Sequence record: MZ234040.1
Direction: 5' to 3' (one strand)
Length of the DNA stretch: 64,000 bases
Origin: Escherichia phage vB_EcoM-G3G7
Of the stretch, positions 26,813 to 36,560 are shown piece after piece. A program made the position numbers and the translations under genes. Each line of letters opens with the position of its first letter. Positions within the stretch are counted from its first letter, which is position 1. The notes beneath the pieces are model-generated. The model saw only the letters and a program-made list of their open reading frames with translations, had not been told where the DNA came from and ran no database searches.

Positions 26813-27147
26813 TGAATTTAACTGATATAATTGATAATTGTCTTGAAAATGATACTGGCGATCATAGAGCGCTTGATTCTGAAACAGCACAGTTCATTAG
26901 AATAACTTTAATGAATGATACTTTGGTGAATAGTATTCATCCTTCTGTGTATGATGCTATTATTGTGACGAAGTATCCAGTTGAGCTTCACAAAAAGATG
27001 GTTGGTGCAATTTTTATTGATAAGAAAAACCGCTTTAAAGATGGGCAGAATATAATTAGTTCTGTTATTAAAAGTATAACTAAACTTCGTCACGAAATTT
27101 ATCGTGTTGAAACTGCTAAATCTGCTTATCTGGTGATTATGAAATGA
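26809..27147 (+). CDS. small early protein (112 aa)
   Basis: ATGA overlaps on both sides. Confidence 0.5.
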   Translation: MMNLTDIIDNCLENDTGDHRALDSETAQFIRITLMNDTLVNSIHPSVYDAIIVTKYPVELHKKMVGAIFIDKKNRFKDGQNIISSVIKSITKLRHEIYRVETAKSAYLVIMK

Positions 27148-27725
27148 AAGCGAGTACAGTACTTCAAATTGCATATTTAGTATCGCAAGAATCAAAATGT
27201 TGCTCCTGGAAGGTAGGAGCAGTAATTGAAAAGAATGGACGTATTATTTCTACTGGGTATAATGGTTCACCTGCAGGGGGTGTGAACTGTTGTGATTATG
27301 CTGCTGAGCAAGGTTGGTTGCTGAATAAACCTAAACATACTATCATTCAAGGTCATAAGCCTGAATGTGTATCATTTGGTTCAACTGATCGTTTTGTCTT
27401 GGCGAAAGAACATCGTAGTGCTCACTCGGAATGGTCATCTAAAAATGAAATTCATGCTGAACTAAATGCGATTTTGTTTGCTGCACGAAATGGTTCTTCA
27501 ATTGAAGGTGCTACTATGTATGTAACACTTTCTCCTTGTCCGGATTGCGCAAAAGCGATAGCTCAGTCTGGAATTAAAAAACTGGTTTATTGCGAAACAT
27601 ACGATAAAAATAAACCTGGCTGGGATGATATTCTGCGAAATGCAGGTATTGAAGTGTTTAATGTTCCTAAGAAAAACTTAAATAAGTTAAACTGGGAAAA
27701 TATCAACGAATTCTGTGGTGAATAA
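27144..27725 (+). CDS. cd: dCMP deaminase
   Basis: 193-aa ORF with zinc-binding deaminase motifs HAELNAI and SPCPDCAKAI; matches T4 Cd. Confidence 0.93.
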   Translation: MKASTVLQIAYLVSQESKCCSWKVGAVIEKNGRIISTGYNGSPAGGVNCCDYAAEQGWLLNKPKHTIIQGHKPECVSFGSTDRFVLAKEHRSAHSEWSSKNEIHAELNAILFAARNGSSIEGATMYVTLSPCPDCAKAIAQSGIKKLVYCETYDKNKPGWDDILRNAGIEVFNVPKKNLNKLNWENINEFCGE

Positions 27726-28326: not shown

Positions 28327-28662
28327 ATGTCTGAAGTACAACAGCTACCAATTCGTGCTGTCGGTGAATATGTTATTTTAGTTTCTGAACCTGCACAAGC
28401 CGGTGATGAAGAAGTTACAGAATCAGGACTTATTATCGGTAAACGTGTTCAAGGTGAAGTTCCTGAACTGTGTGTAGTTCACTCTGTCGGTCCTGATGTT
28501 CCTGAAGGTTTCTGCGAAGTTGGCGATTTGACTTCTCTTCCAGTTGGTCAAATTCGAAATGTTCCGCATCCTTTTGTAGCTCTGGGTCTTAAGCAGCCAA
28601 AAGAAATTAAACAAAAATTCGTTACCTGTCACTATAAAGCTATTCCGTGTCTTTATAAGTGA
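28327..28662 (+). CDS. 31: co-chaperonin gp31 (GroES analogue for capsid protein folding)
   Basis: 111-aa [64 protein letters not shown]... matches T4 gp31. Confidence 0.93.
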
Positions 28663-28670
28663 TATAAATA
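28663..28670 (+). promoter_or_regulatory. possible T4-type late promoter (TATAAATA) downstream of gene 31
   Basis: Exact TATAAATA on plus strand, about 140 nt upstream of rIII. Confidence 0.35.
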
Positions 28671-28809
28671 ATAATATGAATTGGGTGTCGGAATAATAAG
28701 TTAACCGAACAATTCTATGTGGTAGTCTACAACTGAGAGATCTGTCGAAAGAAGATGAAATTCAGAAGAACGTGACTACCGAGTTTTAATCTCTAACGAG
28801 AATTTTTAA

Positions 28810-29058
28810 ATGATTAAACAATTACAACACGCTCTTGAACTGCAACGAAACGCATGGAATAATGGTCACGAAAACTATGGCGCATCTATTGATGTTGAAG
28901 CCGAAGCTCTTGAAATCCTGCGTTATTTCAAACATCTGAATCCTGCTCAAACTGCATTAGCTGCTGAGCTTCAGGAAAAAGATGAACTTAAATATGCTAA
29001 GCCTCTGGCTTCTGCTGCACGAAAAGCAGTTCGTCACTTTGTGGTAACACTGAAGTAA
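28810..29058 (+). CDS. rIII: rIII lysis-inhibition accessory protein
   Basis: 82-aa ORF at the T4 rIII position between gene 31 and the 30.x cluster. Confidence 0.7.
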   Translation: MIKQLQHALELQRNAWNNGHENYGASIDVEAEALEILRYFKHLNPAQTALAAELQEKDELKYAKPLASAARKAVRHFVVTLK

Positions 29059-29456
29059 TTTATTGGAGAGTCACTGCCTTAGTGTGAAGTTAAAACGAGG
29101 AGCCGTCGAACTGTCTGATTAATGATTTGCGAATCATTATAGTTTTAAGACCCCGGCAGTTTTACGGTGTACCTCTTGAATGTTATTCTTATAGCGGCAA
29201 GTGCATGCTACCCCGAGGTGATGGCCAATCGGGAGTACGCCTCAAGGCCTATATATCCATCAGTATATATCTTATCCTCGAGAAATCGAACCCGGAACCT
29301 TTAAGCTAACGGTGTGCAACAGATAAGAGCTATAAGGTATGATGACGGGTTTATGGTTATCCTGGTCGTTAAATATCAAAAAACCTATGTTCCCCTTGAG
29401 GGCTTGCGCAGGCAATGCCAATAAGTCCTGCATTTTCATTTAAAAGAGAATTTATA

Positions 29457-29633
29457 ATGGCAAAACAAGCTAAAGCAAAGAAAGCAGTTGAAAAGAAAGT
29501 TGGTGATTCTAAACGCGCTGGCTACAAGCGTGGGTCGAACTCTCGTATCAATCAAACTGTTGAGAAGATCATGCGCCGAGCACGTGCGGTTCTTCGAGAT
29601 GATGCTTCTCGTTTTGGTAAGCAGAAAGCATAA
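29457..29633 (+). CDS. small highly basic protein (MAKQAKAKKAVEKKVGDSKRAGYKRGSN...), unknown function
   Basis: 58-aa ORF (alternative upstream ATG at 29415 gives 72 aa); followed by a strong terminator. Confidence 0.5.
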   Translation: MAKQAKAKKAVEKKVGDSKRAGYKRGSNSRINQTVEKIMRRARAVLRDDASRFGKQKA

Positions 29634-29638
29634 GTTGA

Positions 29639-29667
29639 GGACTCCTTCGGGAGTCCTTTTTTATTTT
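29639..29667 (+). terminator. intrinsic terminator
   Basis: GGACTCC-TTCG-GGAGTCC hairpin followed by TTTTTTATTTT. Confidence 0.85.
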
Positions 29668-29686
29668 CCAAAGATTGCATAAAGTT

Positions 29687-29716
29687 GTTTACAGTATGGT
29701 TCCTTTGTGATAGTAT
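29687..29716 (+). promoter_or_regulatory. T4-type early promoter
   Basis: GTTTAC at 29687-29692, 18-nt spacer with TGTGA, TAGTAT at 29711-29716. Confidence 0.55.
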
Positions 29717-29743
29717 TATCTTACACAAACAAAGGAGAATAAA

Positions 29744-30076
29744 ATGAAAACGATTAATCTGAACGCTGCAGTTAAAACTAAATGCTTCAATGGTAAATAT
29801 GATGAAACTATGTGGTTCTTAATGGCAGTTGAAGGTGATATTATTGAAGTAGAAACAACAGAAGGTATGGGAACAGATTTCACCTTTACAATTCAAGTTC
29901 ATAATTTCTTTACTGGTTGGATTTATGAATTGAATACAGTAATCGTTGGAAAAATTGAACAAAATGAATTAGGTGAATGGTATTATGTTACAGCTCGCCA
30001 ACGTGCCGAACGCTTAATTGAGAAGATGAAAAAAGTTGGTAAACTTGACATGCAGCATTGGAAAGTAGTAAAATAA
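29744..30076 (+). CDS. early protein, unknown function (110 aa)
   Basis: AAGGAGAATAAAATG context. Confidence 0.6.
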   Translation: MKTINLNAAVKTKCFNGKYDETMWFLMAVEGDIIEVETTEGMGTDFTFTIQVHNFFTGWIYELNTVIVGKIEQNELGEWYYVTARQRAERLIEKMKKVGKLDMQHWKVVK

Positions 30077-30078
30077 TT

Positions 30079-30108
30079 GTTTACTTTGGTACAGGATATG
30101 ATATTATA
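30079..30108 (+). promoter_or_regulatory. T4-type early promoter
   Basis: GTTTAC at 30079-30084 and TATTAT/ATTATA around 30102-30108. Confidence 0.5.
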
Positions 30109-30143
30109 TACCTGTACCGCAATTAAACATCTTGGAGAATAAA

Positions 30144-30509
30144 ATGAACTACATCAACTTTGAACGTAAATATGTTTCTAATGGTATTGCAGGTTCTATT
30201 GATACTATTTGCCTTTGGAAACATCAAAATGGATCAGTATGCGAAATTGAGCAGTATATGACTCCTAATTACGTTTATATGCGATTTGAAAACGGTATCA
30301 CGGTTTCAATCACGATGGAAGGTTCCAACTTTAAAATCGCTCTGGATGATGATTTCCGTGAACGCGATTTAGGGACTCATCCTTGCTGGAATGGCGTTAA
30401 TCGCAAGCTTTTGGTTAAAACTTGGATTCGTCATATTCTGAGTAACAGAGCTAAACCTGAGCATCTTGAAGCAATCTTTGATGTAGTTCTTAACGAATTT
30501 GATATTTAA
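30144..30509 (+). CDS. early protein, unknown function (121 aa)
   Basis: TTGGAGAATAAAATG context; ORF-track start at 30132 is a TTG. Confidence 0.6.
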   Translation: MNYINFERKYVSNGIAGSIDTICLWKHQNGSVCEIEQYMTPNYVYMRFENGITVSITMEGSNFKIALDDDFRERDLGTHPCWNGVNRKLLVKTWIRHILSNRAKPEHLEAIFDVVLNEFDI

Positions 30510-30549
30510 AATAAATGAGGGGCTTTGGCCCCTTACTGAGGAAAATGTT

Positions 30550-30837
30550 ATGTTTATGACTACTTATTTTGATACCCGTAAAAACTTCTGCGAAGTAGTT
30601 TTCTCAAAGGCGCCTAAAGACCTTCCTGCACATTTGCAACCTACTAGCGAATCGATTAAAAACTACGTTAATGTAGTCTGCCCTTTAGAGTTCCGTACTG
30701 TAAATGGGCGCGATACTTTAGCTATCACTAAACTCAATCGCGAAATTGACATTGATCCCTCAATTGCACGTGAAATTAATAGTTCTGATATTAATGGCGG
30801 TAATGTTAAATCGCACGGTTTTCAGATGAGGTTTTAA
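30550..30837 (+). CDS. early protein, unknown function (about 95 aa)
   Basis: GAGG upstream of ATG 30550; preceded by hairpin AGGGGC-TTTG-GCCCCT. Confidence 0.5.
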   Translation: MFMTTYFDTRKNFCEVVFSKAPKDLPAHLQPTSESIKNYVNVVCPLEFRTVNGRDTLAITKLNREIDIDPSIAREINSSDINGGNVKSHGFQMRF

Positions 30838-31034
30838 TGAAATTCTTTTTAGGTCAAACTGTTGAATTAAAGGGAGTTGGTATACCTGGATTAATTTCTA
30901 AGGTTCTACCTCCATTTAAATGGAGTGGTATTCAAATAAAAGAGGCTTATATTGTTTCCTGGGTAGATGGAAATGAAGACCTTCGTATGGGTGATGAATT
31001 ATCTCCTATCTACGGATTAAAGGAAATAGTATGA
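30837..31034 (+). CDS. small early protein (65 aa)
   Basis: ATGA overlap with the upstream stop. Confidence 0.5.
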   Translation: MKFFLGQTVELKGVGIPGLISKVLPPFKWSGIQIKEAYIVSWVDGNEDLRMGDELSPIYGLKEIV

Positions 31035-31237
31035 ATATAATTAATAAGATTTTTGGAATTCAGTACATTAAGGTCACATATAAAGTAACAGATAAAAATC
31101 CATATACTGATGAACACGAAGAACCACAAGTTAAGTCTATTATATTAGAAAAGGACCCTAACTGGCCAGTTGAATTTCGTCTTCCTTGCTATGGTCATTG
31201 GGCTGATGTTGAAATTATAAGCATTGAAAATGTCTGA
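31031..31237 (+). CDS. small early protein (68 aa)
   Basis: ATGA overlap with the upstream stop. Confidence 0.5.
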   Translation: MNIINKIFGIQYIKVTYKVTDKNPYTDEHEEPQVKSIILEKDPNWPVEFRLPCYGHWADVEIISIENV

Positions 31238-31688
31238 GTTAGAGATTAGAAGCAATTTTAGGTGGCCATCATGTGCATTAAGTAATTTCGCCCATTGGCC
31301 TTTCGTTATGGATGGCATTCAATTTGGAGGTCTTGAAGGATTCCTCCAAGGATGCAAAGTGAAAAATGTTGAACAACAACGTCGTATATTTGGGTTATCC
31401 GGGCTTGCCGCCCAACAAGCTGGAAGGTCTTATGCAAGAGCTCAGGACCGTGGGACCCTCTTCTGGCTTGGAGTTCCATTTTCAAGATACTCCCCGGCGT
31501 GGAAAGAATTATACACAAATGCATATTTTGAAGCAGCGATCCAAAACAAGGGCTTCCGTGATGCATTACAAGCCTCGAAAGGAAAAGTTTTGAAGCACAG
31601 CATGGCTAGTGGTCTAACAAAAGATGATACAATACTAACCGAAGCTGAATTTATTGATGTGTTAAACCTATTAAGAGACTCTCTATGA
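31224..31688 (+). CDS. YbiA/NADAR-family-like protein (putative N-glycosidase / ADP-ribose processing domain)
   Basis: 154-aa ORF; LSNFAHWPFVMDGIQFGGLEGFLQGCKV resembles the signature SNFA.WP...DG......EH.FQA.K of E. coli YbiA / DUF1768 proteins (recalled, not searched). Confidence 0.5.
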   Translation: MKMSELEIRSNFRWPSCALSNFAHWPFVMDGIQFGGLEGFLQGCKVKNVEQQRRIFGLSGLAAQQAGRSYARAQDRGTLFWLGVPFSRYSPAWKELYTNAYFEAAIQNKGFRDALQASKGKVLKHSMASGLTKDDTILTEAEFIDVLNLLRDSL

Positions 31689-32539
31689 AGCCTACTATTT
31701 TAACTGATATTGATGGAGTATGTTTAAGCTGGCAATCAGGCCTTCCTTATTTTGCTCAGAAATATAATCTTCCGTTAGAACATATTTTAAAAATGATCCA
31801 GGATGAGAAATTTATTTCTCCTGGTAAACTATTTAATTGCGATGAAGAACTTGGCGTTAAGCTAATTGAAAAATACAATCGTTCGGATTTTATTCGATAC
31901 TTGTCTCCATATAAAGATGCCCTGTGTGTAATTAACAAATTAAAAGAAGATTATAATTTTGTAGCTGTTACAGCATTGGGTGATTCTATTGACGCTCTGC
32001 TGAATCGTCAATTTAATTTGAATGCTCTTTTTCCTGGTGCCTTCTCAGAAGTACTGATGTGTGGTCATGATTCTTCAAAAGAAGAGTTGTTCAAAAAGGC
32101 AAAAGAAAAATATAACGTAATTTGTTATATTGACGATCTCGCTCACCACTGCGATCACGCAAGTGAAATATTAAATGTTCCTGTTTATTGGATGGCTCGA
32201 GGGGAACGTGACAGTATTCCAAAAACTGCACAGCGAGTTTATACATGGAATGATGTAGAGAATAAGCTTTTTCCATCGAAGGAAAATAAAGAAAGTTTTG
32301 ATAGTGAAAAAGTTATAAAAGATGTAATTGAGAAGATGATTAAAAACGATTCTTTTCGTTGGAACACTACTTGGAGAACTCCTGGATTTAATCCTTATAA
32401 TCCATATCATCCATATTATACACACTCACATCAGATGCATCCATTCCATACGTGGAGTTATATTAAGCCTGGCGACGCAGGGTATTTTAATAGACTTACT
32501 AGTGGTAGTGGTGATAATATTTTCCAAGGAGCATTCTAA
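31685..32539 (+). CDS. HAD-superfamily hydrolase-like protein with Pro/Tyr/His-rich C-terminal tail
   Basis: 284-aa ORF; N-terminal ILTDIDGV (HAD motif I DxDG); C-terminal PGFNPYNPYHPYYTHSHQMHPFHTW low-complexity region. Confidence 0.5.
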   Translation: MKPTILTDIDGVCLSWQSGLPYFAQKYNLPLEHILKMIQDEKFISPGKLFNCDEELGVKLIEKYNRSDFIRYLSPYKDALCVINKLKEDYNFVAVTALGDSIDALLNRQFNLNALFPGAFSEVLMCGHDSSKEELFKKAKEKYNVICYIDDLAHHCDHASEILNVPVYWMARGERDSIPKTAQRVYTWNDVENKLFPSKENKESFDSEKVIKDVIEKMIKNDSFRWNTTWRTPGFNPYNPYHPYYTHSHQMHPFHTWSYIKPGDAGYFNRLTSGSGDNIFQGAF

Positions 32540-32808
32540 TGTTTGTTGTTCACACTATTTATGAAAATGAAGGTAATACTACACGTGATTACGGTCACGT
32601 AAATCAATTTTTTAGATGCAATCCAGAATTCCGAGCTCAAAAAGACGAACGAATTTTTAAAAAATGTGTAGAGCAAGGTTTCATTTACGTCAAGCACTGG
32701 ATGCAAGGAAATAAAGTTAGAACCACGTACCACAGGTCTTTGACTGAGCTTAATGATGAATTGATTTATAATAGAGCTGTAAACCAAACTCTAAAGGATG
32801 AACAATGA
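32539..32808 (+). CDS. small early protein (89 aa), upstream of DNA ligase
   Basis: ORF with TAATG coupling to the upstream stop and ATGA coupling to gene 30. Confidence 0.5.
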   Translation: MFVVHTIYENEGNTTRDYGHVNQFFRCNPEFRAQKDERIFKKCVEQGFIYVKHWMQGNKVRTTYHRSLTELNDELIYNRAVNQTLKDEQ

Positions 32809-34268
32809 TTCTTAAAATTCTGAACGAAATAGCATCTATTGGTTCAACTAAGCAGAAGCAAGCAATTCTTGAAAAGAATAAAGATAATGAATTGCTTAAA
32901 CGAGTATATCGTCTGACTTATTCTCGTGGGTTACAGTATTATATCAAGAAATGGCCTAAACCTGGTATTGCTACCCAGAGTTTTGGAATGTTGACTCTTA
33001 CTGATATGCTTGACTTCATTGAATTCACGTTAGCTACTCGGAAATTGACTGGAAATGCGGCAATTGAAGAATTAATTGGTTATATTACTGACGGTAAAAA
33101 AGATGATGTTGAAGTTTTGCGTCGAGTGATGATGCGAGACCTTGAATGTGGTGCTTCAGTATCTATTGCAAACAAAGTTTGGCCAGGTTTAATTCCTGAA
33201 CAACCTCAAATGCTCGCAAGTTCTTATGATGAAAAAGGCATTAATAAGAATATCAAATTTCCAGCCTTTGCCCAGTTAAAAGCTGATGGAGCTCGGTGCT
33301 TTGCCGAAGTCAGAGGTGATGAATTAGATGACGTTCGTCTTTTATCACGAGCTGGTAATGAATATCTAGGATTAGATCTTCTTAAGGAAGAATTAATCAA
33401 AATGACCGCTGAAGCCCGCCAGATTCATCCAGAAGGCGTGTTAATTGATGGCGAATTGGTATACCATGAGCAAGTTGAAAAGGAGCCAGAAGGCCTAGAT
33501 TTTCTTTTTGATGCTTATCCTGAAAACAGTAAAGCTAAAGAATTCGCCGAAGTAGCTGAATCACGTACTGCATCTAATGGCATCGCCAATAAATCTTTAA
33601 AGGGAACCATTTCTGAAAAAGAAGCACAATGCATGAAGTTTCAGGTCTGGGATTATGTACCGTTGGTAGAAATATACGGTCTTCCTGCATTTCGTTTGAA
33701 ATATGATGTACGTTTTTCTAAACTAGAACAAATGACATCAGGCTATGATAAAGTAATTTTAATTGAAAACCAGGTAGTAAATAACCTAGACGAAGCCAAG
33801 GTAATTTATAAAAAGTATATTGACCAAGGTCTTGAAGGTATTATTCTCAAAAATATCGATGGATTATGGGAAAATGCTCGTTCAAAAAATCTCTATAAAT
33901 TTAAAGAAGTAATTGATGTTGATTTAAAAATTGTAGGAATTTATCCTCACCGTAAAGACCCTACTAAAGCAGGTGGATTTATTCTTGAGTCAGAGTGTGG
34001 AAAAATTAAAGTAAATGCTGGTTCAGGCTTAAAAGATAAAGCCGGTGTAAAATCGCATGAACTTGACCGTACTCGCATTATGGAAAACCAAAATTATTAT
34101 ATTGGAAAAATTCTAGAGTGCGAATGCAACGGTTGGTTAAAATCTGATGGCCGCACTGATTACGTTAAATTATTTCTTCCGATTGCGATTCGTTTGCGTG
34201 AAGATAAAACTAAAGCTAATACATTCGAGGATGTATTTGGTGATTTTCATGAGGTAACTGGTTTATGA
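32805..34268 (+). CDS. 30: ATP-dependent DNA ligase
   Basis: 487-aa ORF MILKILNEIASIGSTKQKQAILEKNKDNELLKRVYRLTYSRGLQYYIKKWPKPG... with adenylation lysine motif FAQLKADGARC; matches T4 DNA ligase. Confidence 0.95.
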   Translation: MILKILNEIASIGSTKQKQAILEKNKDNELLKRVYRLTYSRGLQYYIKKWPKPGIATQSFGMLTLTDMLDFIEFTLATRKLTGNAAIEELIGYITDGKKDDVEVLRRVMMRDLECGASVSIANKVWPGLIPEQPQMLASSYDEKGINKNIKFPAFAQLKADGARCFAEVRGDELDDVRLLSRAGNEYLGLDLLKEELIKMTAEARQIHPEGVLIDGELVYHEQVEKEPEGLDFLFDAYPENSKAKEFAEVAESRTASNGIANKSLKGTISEKEAQCMKFQVWDYVPLVEIYGLPAFRLKYDVRFSKLEQMTSGYDKVILIENQVVNNLDEAKVIYKKYIDQGLEGIILKNIDGLWENARSKNLYKFKEVIDVDLKIVGIYPHRKDPTKAGGFILESECGKIKVNAGSGLKDKAGVKSHELDRTRIMENQNYYIGKILECECNGWLKSDGRTDYVKLFLPIAIRLREDKTKANTFEDVFGDFHEVTGL

Positions 34269-34453
34269 AAGCTTACTTAGAAACAATTGTCATTGCTCAA
34301 AAAGAAGGTGGAGATGTTTCTACTTCTGTATCACAAGTCATTCTCGAATTTGTAGATGCATACGCTTATAATAAATTCACAGAAACATTTGATGCCTATG
34401 AAAAAGGTCCAAAGTTTGAAATATACCGTACTCTCTTACCACTAGATTATTAA
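34265..34453 (+). CDS. small protein (62 aa) downstream of ligase
   Basis: ATGA overlap with the gene 30 stop; followed by a terminator. Confidence 0.5.
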   Translation: MKAYLETIVIAQKEGGDVSTSVSQVILEFVDAYAYNKFTETFDAYEKGPKFEIYRTLLPLDY

Positions 34454-34475: not shown

Positions 34476-34505
34476 ATAAATAGAATAAACACTAGAGAGG
34501 CTATG

Positions 34506-36560
34506 ATGGAACTTATTACAGAATTATTTGACGAAGATACTACTCTTCCGATTACAAACTTAAATCCAAAGAAGAAAATACCGCAAATTTTTTCAGTTCA
34601 TGTTGATGATGCAATTGAACAACCAGGCTTTCGTTTATGTACCTATACATCTGGAGGTGATACTAATCGCGATTTAAAGATGGGCGATAAAATGATGCAT
34701 ATTGTTCCTTTTACATTAACTGCTAAAGGTTCAATTGCTAAATTAAAAGGTCTTGGTCCAAGCCCAATTAATTATATCAATTCAGTTTTTACTGTTGCGA
34801 TGCAAACAATGCGTCAGTATAAAATTGATGCCTGTATGCTTCGTATTCTTAAGTCTAAAACCGCTGGTCAAGCTCGACAAATTCAAGTTATTGCTGATAG
34901 ACTTATCCGTAGTCGTTCAGGTGGCAGATACGTCCTTCTTAAGGAACTCTGGGATTACGATAAAAAGTATGCATATATTCTTATACATCGCAAAAATGTA
35001 TCACTAGAAGACATTCCGGGAGTTCCGGAAATTAGTACTGAGCTCTTTACTAAAGTTGAATCGAAGGTCGGTGATGTTTATATCAATAAAGATACTGGAG
35101 CTCAAGTAACTAAAAATGAGGCAATTGCAGCATCTATTGCGCAAGAAAATGATAAACGTTCTGACCAAGCTGTAATCGTTAAAGTTAAAATTTCCCGTAG
35201 AGCAATTGCGCAAAGTCAATCATTGGAATCTTCTAGATTTGAAACGCCGATGTTTCAAAAATTTGAGGCTTCAGCAGCAGAATTAAATAAACCTGCTGAC
35301 GCTCCTTTAATTTCTGACGCTAATGAATTAACTGTTATTTCTACTTCAGGATTTGCATTAGAGAATGCTCTTAGTAGTGTTACAGCTGGAATGGCATTCA
35401 GAGAAGCTTCTATAATTCCTGAAGATAAAGAATCTGATGTTAATGCAGAAATAAAAAATAAAGCTTTAGAAAGATTACGAAAAGAATCTATTACTTCAAT
35501 AAAAACTTTAGAAACTATTGCTTCTATAGTTGATGATACTTTAGAAAAATATAAAGGTGCTTGGTTAGAAAGAAACATTAACAAGCATTCGCATTTAAAT
35601 CAAGATGCTGCGAATGAGTTAGTACAAAATTCTTGGAATGCAATAAAAACAAAGATTATTCGAAGAGAATTGCGTGGATATGCTCTTACCGCTGGATGGT
35701 CACTACATCCTATAGTCGAAAATAAAGATTCATCTAAATACACACCGGCACAAAAACGCGGAATTCGTGAATACGTAAGTTCAGGATATGTAGACATAAA
35801 TAACGCTCTTTTGGGATTATATAATCCAGATGAGCGTACAAGTATTTTGACAGCATCTGATATAGAAAAAGCTATTGATAATTTAGATTCTGCCTTTAAA
35901 AATGGTGAACGATTACCAAAAGGTATTACTTTGTATCGTTCACAACGAATGTTACCTTCAATATATGAAGCACTGGTAAAAAATCGAGTTTTTTATTTTA
36001 GAAATTTTGTGTCAACATCATTATATCCAAATATTTTTGGTACCTGGATGACTGATTCATCTGTGGGTGTTTTACCAGACGAAAAGCGTTTAAGTGTTTC
36101 TATTGATAAAACTGATGAAGGACTAGTAAATTCTAGCGATAATTTAGTTGGAATTGGATGGGTTATTACTGGGGCTGATAAAGTCAATGTTGTTTTACCA
36201 GGTGGAAGTTTAGCACCTTCAAATGAAATGGAAGTCATTTTGCCACGTGGATTAATGGTCAAAGTTAATAAAATAACCGATGCATCTTACAATGATGGAA
36301 CAGTTAAAACTAACAACAAGCTTATTCAAGCTGAAGTTATGACCACAGAAGAACTCACCGAATCGGTAATTTATGACGGTGACCGTCTAATGGAAACCGG
36401 CGAAGTAGTTACAATGACAGGTGATATTGAAATAGAAGACAGAGTTGATTTTGCATCATTTGTTTCATCAAATGTTAAACAGAAAGTAGAATCATCTCTT
36501 GGAATTATTGCGTCTTGTATAGATATTGCAAACATGCCTTACAAGTTCGTTCAAGGATAA
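34506..36560 (+). CDS. alt: Alt, virion-packaged mono-ADP-ribosyltransferase (modifies host RNA polymerase)
   Basis: About 684-aa ORF MELITELFDEDTTLPITNLNPKKKIPQIFSVHVDDAIEQPGFRLCTYTSGGDTNRDLKMGDK...; ART catalytic signature R (LYRSQ), STS (FVSTSL), E-x-E (EMEVILPRG). Confidence 0.9.
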   Translation: MELITELFDEDTTLPITNLNPKKKIPQIFSVHVDDAIEQPGFRLCTYTSGGDTNRDLKMGDKMMHIVPFTLTAKGSIAKLKGLGPSPINYINSVFTVAMQTMRQYKIDACMLRILKSKTAGQARQIQVIADRLIRSRSGGRYVLLKELWDYDKKYAYILIHRKNVSLEDIPGVPEISTELFTKVESKVGDVYINKDTGAQVTKNEAIAASIAQENDKRSDQAVIVKVKISRRAIAQSQSLESSRFETPMFQKFEASAAELNKPADAPLISDANELTVISTSGFALENALSSVTAGMAFREASIIPEDKESDVNAEIKNKALERLRKESITSIKTLETIASIVDDTLEKYKGAWLERNINKHSHLNQDAANELVQNSWNAIKTKIIRRELRGYALTAGWSLHPIVENKDSSKYTPAQKRGIREYVSSGYVDINNALLGLYNPDERTSILTASDIEKAIDNLDSAFKNGERLPKGITLYRSQRMLPSIYEALVKNRVFYFRNFVSTSLYPNIFGTWMTDSSVGVLPDEKRLSVSIDKTDEGLVNSSDNLVGIGWVITGADKVNVVLPGGSLAPSNEMEVILPRGLMVKVNKITDASYNDGTVKTNNKLIQAEVMTTEELTESVIYDGDRLMETGEVVTMTGDIEIEDRVDFASFVSSNVKQKVESSLGIIASCIDIANMPYKFVQG

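Follow-up and report, generated by a model that had tools for sequence, protein, structure and literature searches.

The open reading frame followed up here in Escherichia phage vB_EcoM-G3G7 (sequence record MZ234040.1; by the window we mean the whole 64,000-nucleotide stretch of DNA that was analysed) is gene 30.3, adfN, of a T4-type phage. We put at roughly 0.9 the probability that it works as adfN, that is, as an early gene for a minimal, stand-alone N-glycosidase of the NADAR fold that would undo DarT1 marks on phage DNA. The identity of the gene, the fold of its product, its homology to the NADAR superfamily, the conservation of E36, K43 and H123, and the intact C-terminus are established here. 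Because the classification, enzymology and phenotype had already been published between 2023 and 2026, the feature was known before, and its assignment brings nothing new to biology. What it bears on is the need of T4-type AdfN for the context of a T-even infection.

The first-pass annotation had drawn the ORF at 31224..31688 on the plus strand, and the ORF is genuine; its translation carries LSNFAHWPFVMDGIQFGGLEGFLQGCKV. The stop at 31688 stands, but the TTG start at 31224 and the resulting length of 154 aa do not. This TTG is merely the mechanical first start codon. Since T4 gene 30.3 is annotated with 459 nt, and since only the ATG at 31230 gives the glutamate and the lysine their published numbers, E36 and K43, translation is taken to begin at this ATG and the product has 152 aa. 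The gene and its two immediate neighbours are as follows.

31230..31688, plus strand: adfN (gene 30.3) CDS, 152 aa plus stop; predicted phage-type NADAR ADP-ribosylglycohydrolase (PF08010, T4 identity, T4-equal length, NADAR fold)
31031..31237, plus strand: gene 30.4, 68 aa (PHROG 2042; T4 annotation); its stop and the adfN ATG overlap (ATGTCTGA)
31685..32539, plus strand: gene 30.2, 284 aa; predicted HAD-fold hydrolase whose Pro/Tyr/His-rich tail is disordered; start codon overlapping with the stop of adfN (ATGA, 31685-31688)

The source genome belongs to Tequatrovirus, the T4-like phages, and 150 of the 152 residues are identical to those of T4 gp30.3. The two differences, Q22H and I125M, presumably leave function unchanged. 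Besides its length, the window gene shares with T4 adfN its neighbours (30.4 before it, 30.2 after it and lig close by), residues E36, K43 and H123, and the intact C-terminal helix. Positions 30500-33000 are 100% identical in several Escherichia phages, vB_EcoM-CHD2BS1 among them, with matches in 673 phage records. The first-pass annotation had called this a hypervariable 30.x region. In this phage it is not, because genes 30.8, 30.7, 30.6, 30.5, 30.4, 30.3, 30.2, 30.1 and lig follow one another in the same order as in T4; moreover, of 1510 phage records with the protein, 619 have it at 95% identity or more. A DarT domain was sought in the flanking genes (30.4, 30.2, 30.1 and lig) and none was found, so that adfN is an orphan. 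Promoters and terminators predicted in 28500..34400 were no more numerous than in shuffled sequence.

An internal ORF annotated in T4, 30.3' (75 aa; 31366..31593, plus strand, in the +1 frame inside adfN), is open in the window as well. We considered it as a conserved second gene and rejected this. Within the overlap the window departs from T4 at five nucleotides, each of which alters the product of 30.3' and leaves that of 30.3 unchanged; in RB69 the 30.3' frame is interrupted by a stop codon, and in phage RZ its ATG is replaced by ATC.

Against Pfam, the protein matched PF08010 (Phage_30_3) over model positions 1-138 of 138 with E = 7.7e-70 and a score of 233.5 bits, the curated threshold being 36; judged by this match, the ORF lies far beyond chance. 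PF08010 was likewise matched by each of the 61 homologues in our gp30.3 family alignment, which extends down to 35% identity. Other collections said less: PHROGs places the protein in phrog_652, function unknown, NCBIfam gave no match for gp30.3, and PADLOC matched neither gp30.3 nor gp30.2.

The product had been described from the sequence alone as YbiA/NADAR-like, with a Pfam search for PF08719 (NADAR) proposed as the check. For the single protein that check was negative, a direct scan returning no PF08719 match at E <= 1, and the relationship is seen only when profiles and structures are compared. When the gp30.3 family was aligned by hhalign with a YbiA family of 33 relatives of the E. coli protein (query from MG1655), the two were joined over 125 columns with a probability of 97.4% (E = 1.5e-11). 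The alignment paired S18-N19-F20 with YbiA S30-N31-F32, E36 with E48, Q40 with Q52, and K43 with K55. PF08719 is also matched by 8 of the 61 gp30.3 family members (best E = 1.5e-7), and several YbiA relatives match both PF08010 and PF08719. A search of the PDB with the single sequence (phmmer) returned a chance match only, E = 0.62; with the family profile, the top sequence match was YbiA (2b3w, E = 0.0047). The likeness to YbiA was also borne out by BLASTP of the motif region against the E. coli protein, which gave 33% identity over 57 aa (pairwise E = 1e-5). Membership of the protein in the NADAR superfamily is thus supported.

Structure prediction and comparison with YbiA had also been proposed, together with a look at the conserved catalytic residues, and both came out in favour of the NADAR reading. 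An AlphaFold2 model built on the 61-homologue alignment reached a pLDDT of 92.9 and a pTM of 0.88, and it has the helical core flanked by small beta-hairpins of the NADAR fold. Its closest structure in the PDB was the Phytophthora NADAR with ADP-ribose (8bau, score 11.8), with E. coli YbiA second (2b3w, 11.5), followed by the DarG1-type NADAR of Geobacter lovleyi (8bat, 9.3); the next structure, an unrelated one, scored 4.2. The N-terminal E..FQ..K motif of NADAR proteins retains both the catalytic glutamate and the lysine that contacts ADP-ribose. The residues and the element concerned lie at these positions.

31335..31337, plus strand: codon GAA for E36, catalytic glutamate; invariant in 61 homologues, aligned to YbiA E48
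31356..31358, plus strand: codon AAA for K43, ADP-ribose-contacting lysine; at least 90% conserved (n = 61), aligned to YbiA K55
31596..31598, plus strand: codon CAC for H123, the phage-NADAR histidine; invariant in 61 homologues, directly after the last strand (E120-122) of the model
31641..31682, plus strand: C-terminal helix, residues 138-151; a helix in the model, intact here and lost in RB69

A frameshift ends the RB69 allele after residue 137, a truncation already published (PMC11825919). The window allele has no such frameshift and is, with its 152 aa and C-terminal helix, a full-length orthologue of T4 30.3.

What this protein does in T4 has been worked out by others. Phage NADARs formed a distinct group in an earlier bioinformatic classification, as cited in PMC11543638, and have also been termed gp30.3 proteins (PMC11125620). 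In 2024, T4 gp30.3 was found to cleave guanosine-ADPr and not thymidine-ADPr, and it did not by itself rescue cells from DarT1 (PMC11125620); a report of 2026 added that cytidine-ADPr is not removed by the T4 NADAR (PMC12945103). By means of chimeras between RB69 and either T2 or T4, Johannesman et al. (Nat Commun 2025) mapped resistance to DarTG1 to 30.3, which they renamed adfN, for anti-DarT factor NADAR (PMC11825919). In that study, T4 and T2 lost the ability to plaque on DarTG1 hosts once adfN was deleted, RB69 regained it when adfN was supplied on a plasmid, and DarTG2 was not countered. The purified protein stripped ADP-ribose from DarT1-modified DNA, whereas purified E36A removed none; the E36A and K43A variants gave only partial plaque rescue, and C-terminal truncation lowered activity (PMC11825919). 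Enzymatic activity and the anti-DarTG1 phenotype would carry over to the window gene by analogy with these experiments on a 99% identical allele. The suggestion in the first-pass annotation that the product might counter DarTG-type defences therefore matches a published function, that of AdfN as a guanine-ADP-ribose DNA glycohydrolase neutralising DarTG1 (PMC11825919, PMC11125620).

On this evidence, infection of a DarTG1 host would proceed as follows. The toxin DarT1 would ADP-ribosylate guanine in the phage DNA, and this modification would block phage replication. AdfN, made during infection, would hydrolyse the bond between guanine N2 and ribose, and the release of ADP-ribose would restore replication. 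The phage would, in effect, carry its own orphan copy of the DarG1 antitoxin. The intact gene suggests that this phage plates on E. coli carrying DarTG1, as T4 and T2 do and unlike RB69, and adfN status may be useful for predicting host range and choosing strains for phage therapy.

The comparison with DarG1 has its limits, however. In contrast to the NADAR of DarG1 (Geobacter lovleyi, 8bat; E. coli C7), the window gene has no adjacent DarT1, and its product is much smaller, consisting of the core domain only, and has a histidine where DarG1 has a catalytic aspartate (PMC11543638, PMC12945103). Nor can T4 gp30.3 replace DarG1 in uninfected cells: T4 AdfN did not rescue E. coli expressing DarT1 without phage (PMC11125620, PMC11825919), and it rescued the unrelated phages T5 and Bas25 only weakly (PMC11825919). 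Because AdfN fails in uninfected cells and helps these phages so little, the picture of a free-standing antitoxin is incomplete, and AdfN may need another T-even factor. DNA hypermodification is not the cause of the T-even restriction, and an extra T-even protein is suspected by the authors of that work (PMC11825919). The NADARs AdfN-Bas32 and AdfN-Bas60, of T5-like phages and Vequintavirinae, are also phage-borne, specific for guanine-ADPr and able to counter DarTG1, but they represent other clades of NADAR, each an independent acquisition, and are active without T-even infection (PMC11825919).

A detail of the 2024 work may deserve attention in its own right. Its Methods describe the T4 construct as 'gp30.3; residues 1-208' (PMC11125620), against 152 aa in the T4 annotation. 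The count may include a tag, or the construct may be a different one, a point of possible relevance to the absence of rescue in vivo that the paper reports.

Could the main substrate instead be RNA, such as tRNA or other RNA ADP-ribosylated on guanine, or soluble ADP-ribose derivatives arising from host immunity or RNA repair, with the action against DarT1 as only one facet? We regard this as unlikely. It would accord with the removal of G-ADPr from RNA reported for representatives of all NADAR families (PMC12945103), and with the position of the gp30.3 homologue inside the tRNA gene cluster of Karamvirus phages and of Ralstonia phage RSP15. On the other hand, the deletion phenotype of T4 and T2 is specific, namely lost plating on DarTG1 hosts, and AdfN acts on DarT1-modified DNA (PMC11825919). 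In the window, adfN lies near the DNA ligase gene and away from tRNA genes; besides, the tRNA clusters of T4-like phages tend to accumulate small accessory genes in general. Placement in such a cluster could reflect a role directed at RNA, or it could simply reflect the clustering of accessory genes.

Examples of this placement were seen in Klebsiella phage KaAlpha (locus L009, 4001..4450) and Aeromonas phage PS49 (locus L010), both with a NADAR gene of the gp30.3 type in the tRNA cluster. In RSP15, which lies outside Straboviridae (locus L008, 3995..4513), the NADAR gene is likewise in the tRNA cluster, near a gene annotated as 'RNA-binding protein'.

If AdfN does undo DarT1 marks together with another T-even factor, the adjoining gene 30.2 comes into view as that missing partner, the two genes then forming a counter-defence module. 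We think this improbable. Its product is predicted, from sequence and model, to be a phosphatase or nucleotidase-like protein of the HAD fold, closest to enzymes of the 5'(3')-deoxyribonucleotidase kind. The HAD signature residues D8, D10, K132, D150 and D151 are invariant among 45 homologues, and the model is confident at residues 1-200, followed by a C-terminal tail of about 70 residues that is disordered and rich in Pro, Tyr and His. Foldseek matched HAD hydrolases including 5'(3')-deoxyribonucleotidases (E about 1e-7), and the family profile matched 2jao (E = 0.03). Two partner roles are conceivable for gp30.2: bringing AdfN to the DNA while it replicates, or further processing of either the ADP-ribose set free or a phosphorylated intermediate. 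The two proteins occur in similar numbers of phage records (1452 with gp30.2 and 1510 with gp30.3), with similar lists of host genera, and Tequatrovirus, Gaprivervirus and Dhakavirus all retain the ATGA overlap of the genes. Against the proposal, many other T-even genes fit the pattern equally well. Gene 30.2 is labelled 'hypothetical' in nearly all the phage records listed.

When the 4-kb flanks of gp30.3 homologues were searched for gp30.2 by tblastn, it was found only in T4, RB69, RZ (Gaprivervirus), CLB_P2 (Dhakavirus) and Acinetobacter phage ZZ1, in each of which 30.2 adjoins 30.3, and not in KVP40, Karamvirus, Ralstonia phage RSP15 or jumbo-phage-like metagenomic contigs, where the homologues are unlinked. 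The linkage is therefore confined to particular lineages. As a universal, obligatory neighbour gp30.2 was rejected, since the gene that follows the gp30.3 homologue in a 308-kb metagenomic contig is unrelated to it (BLASTP E = 11). That homologue, 39% identical, illustrates the presence of such genes on contigs of jumbo-phage size (locus L002, 6001..6468). At most about 4 kb from it, the contig carries a Nudix hydrolase gene and a Thg1-like gene of the tRNA-His guanylyltransferase family.

It is most improbable that the protein is a housekeeping N-glycosidase of the YbiA type which destroys reactive intermediates of the riboflavin pathway, even though YbiA was the top or a near-top match in both sequence and structure. 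YbiA itself (PF08719, 2b3w) is annotated as an N-glycosidase and has activity on riboflavin intermediates according to literature cited in PMC11543638; it is chromosomal, adjoins dinG, and stands in a LexA-controlled operon (PMC11125620). The position in the last strand sets the families apart, being His in phage NADARs, Glu in the YbiA family and Asp in DarG1 (PMC11125620, PMC11543638, PMC12945103). H123 of the window protein is the probable counterpart of YbiA E125, from which it lies one to two columns away in the hhalign alignment. The canonical C-terminal segment of YbiA, ENDxYWGDGG, is absent from the window protein by alignment and by hhalign, and part of the active site must therefore differ, in line with a published account in which the phage NADAR is a bare core domain (PMC12945103). 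In the aligned region the window protein reads LKHSMASGL and YbiA reads VEHTENDAYWGDGG, so that the former is a superfamily relative and not a member of the YbiA family in the strict sense. By its last-strand histidine the protein sits in the phage gp30.3 branch, not in the YbiA branch with its glutamate. Moreover, no riboflavin genes were found near adfN, and the phenotype seen in experiments is the one against DarTG1 (PMC11825919).

The first-pass annotation was right that the phage also encodes ADP-ribosyltransferases (ARTs), since two Alt-like genes lie 2.8 kb downstream of adfN in the same orientation, in tandem and both of full length.

34503..36560, plus strand: Alt-like ART gene, 685 aa, PF03496
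36564..38621, plus strand: second Alt-like ART gene, 685 aa, PF03496; 41% identical to the first

Its further idea of modulated ADP-ribosylation, taken here to mean that adfN reverses or tunes the ADP-ribosylation of host proteins or RNA by the phage's own Alt, ModA and ModB, found no support and is most improbable: although NADARs of T4-like phages are early genes expressed along with ARTs (Iyer et al. 2022, PMC9503650) and the Alt-like genes are close by, the NADAR activities reported in the papers cited here are all on nucleobase linkages, with G-ADPr and neither T-ADPr nor C-ADPr removed by the T4 enzyme (PMC11125620, PMC12945103), Alt is annotated in T4 as an RNA polymerase ADP-ribosyltransferase and so acts on protein, no experiment ties gp30.3 to targets of Alt or Mod, and in other T4-like phages the gene lies away from alt.

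The Alt-like pair itself differs from the arrangement in T4, which has a single alt and, as decayed remnants of duplicates, alt.-1, alt.-2 and alt.-3, whereas in the window phage the second paralogue is intact; it may have a different target. Elsewhere in the window, the dCMP deaminase gene cd (27144..27725, plus strand) matched PF00383 and, weakly, many AID/APOBEC-like deaminase models. This gene is ordinary for T4, whose cd holds the corresponding position.
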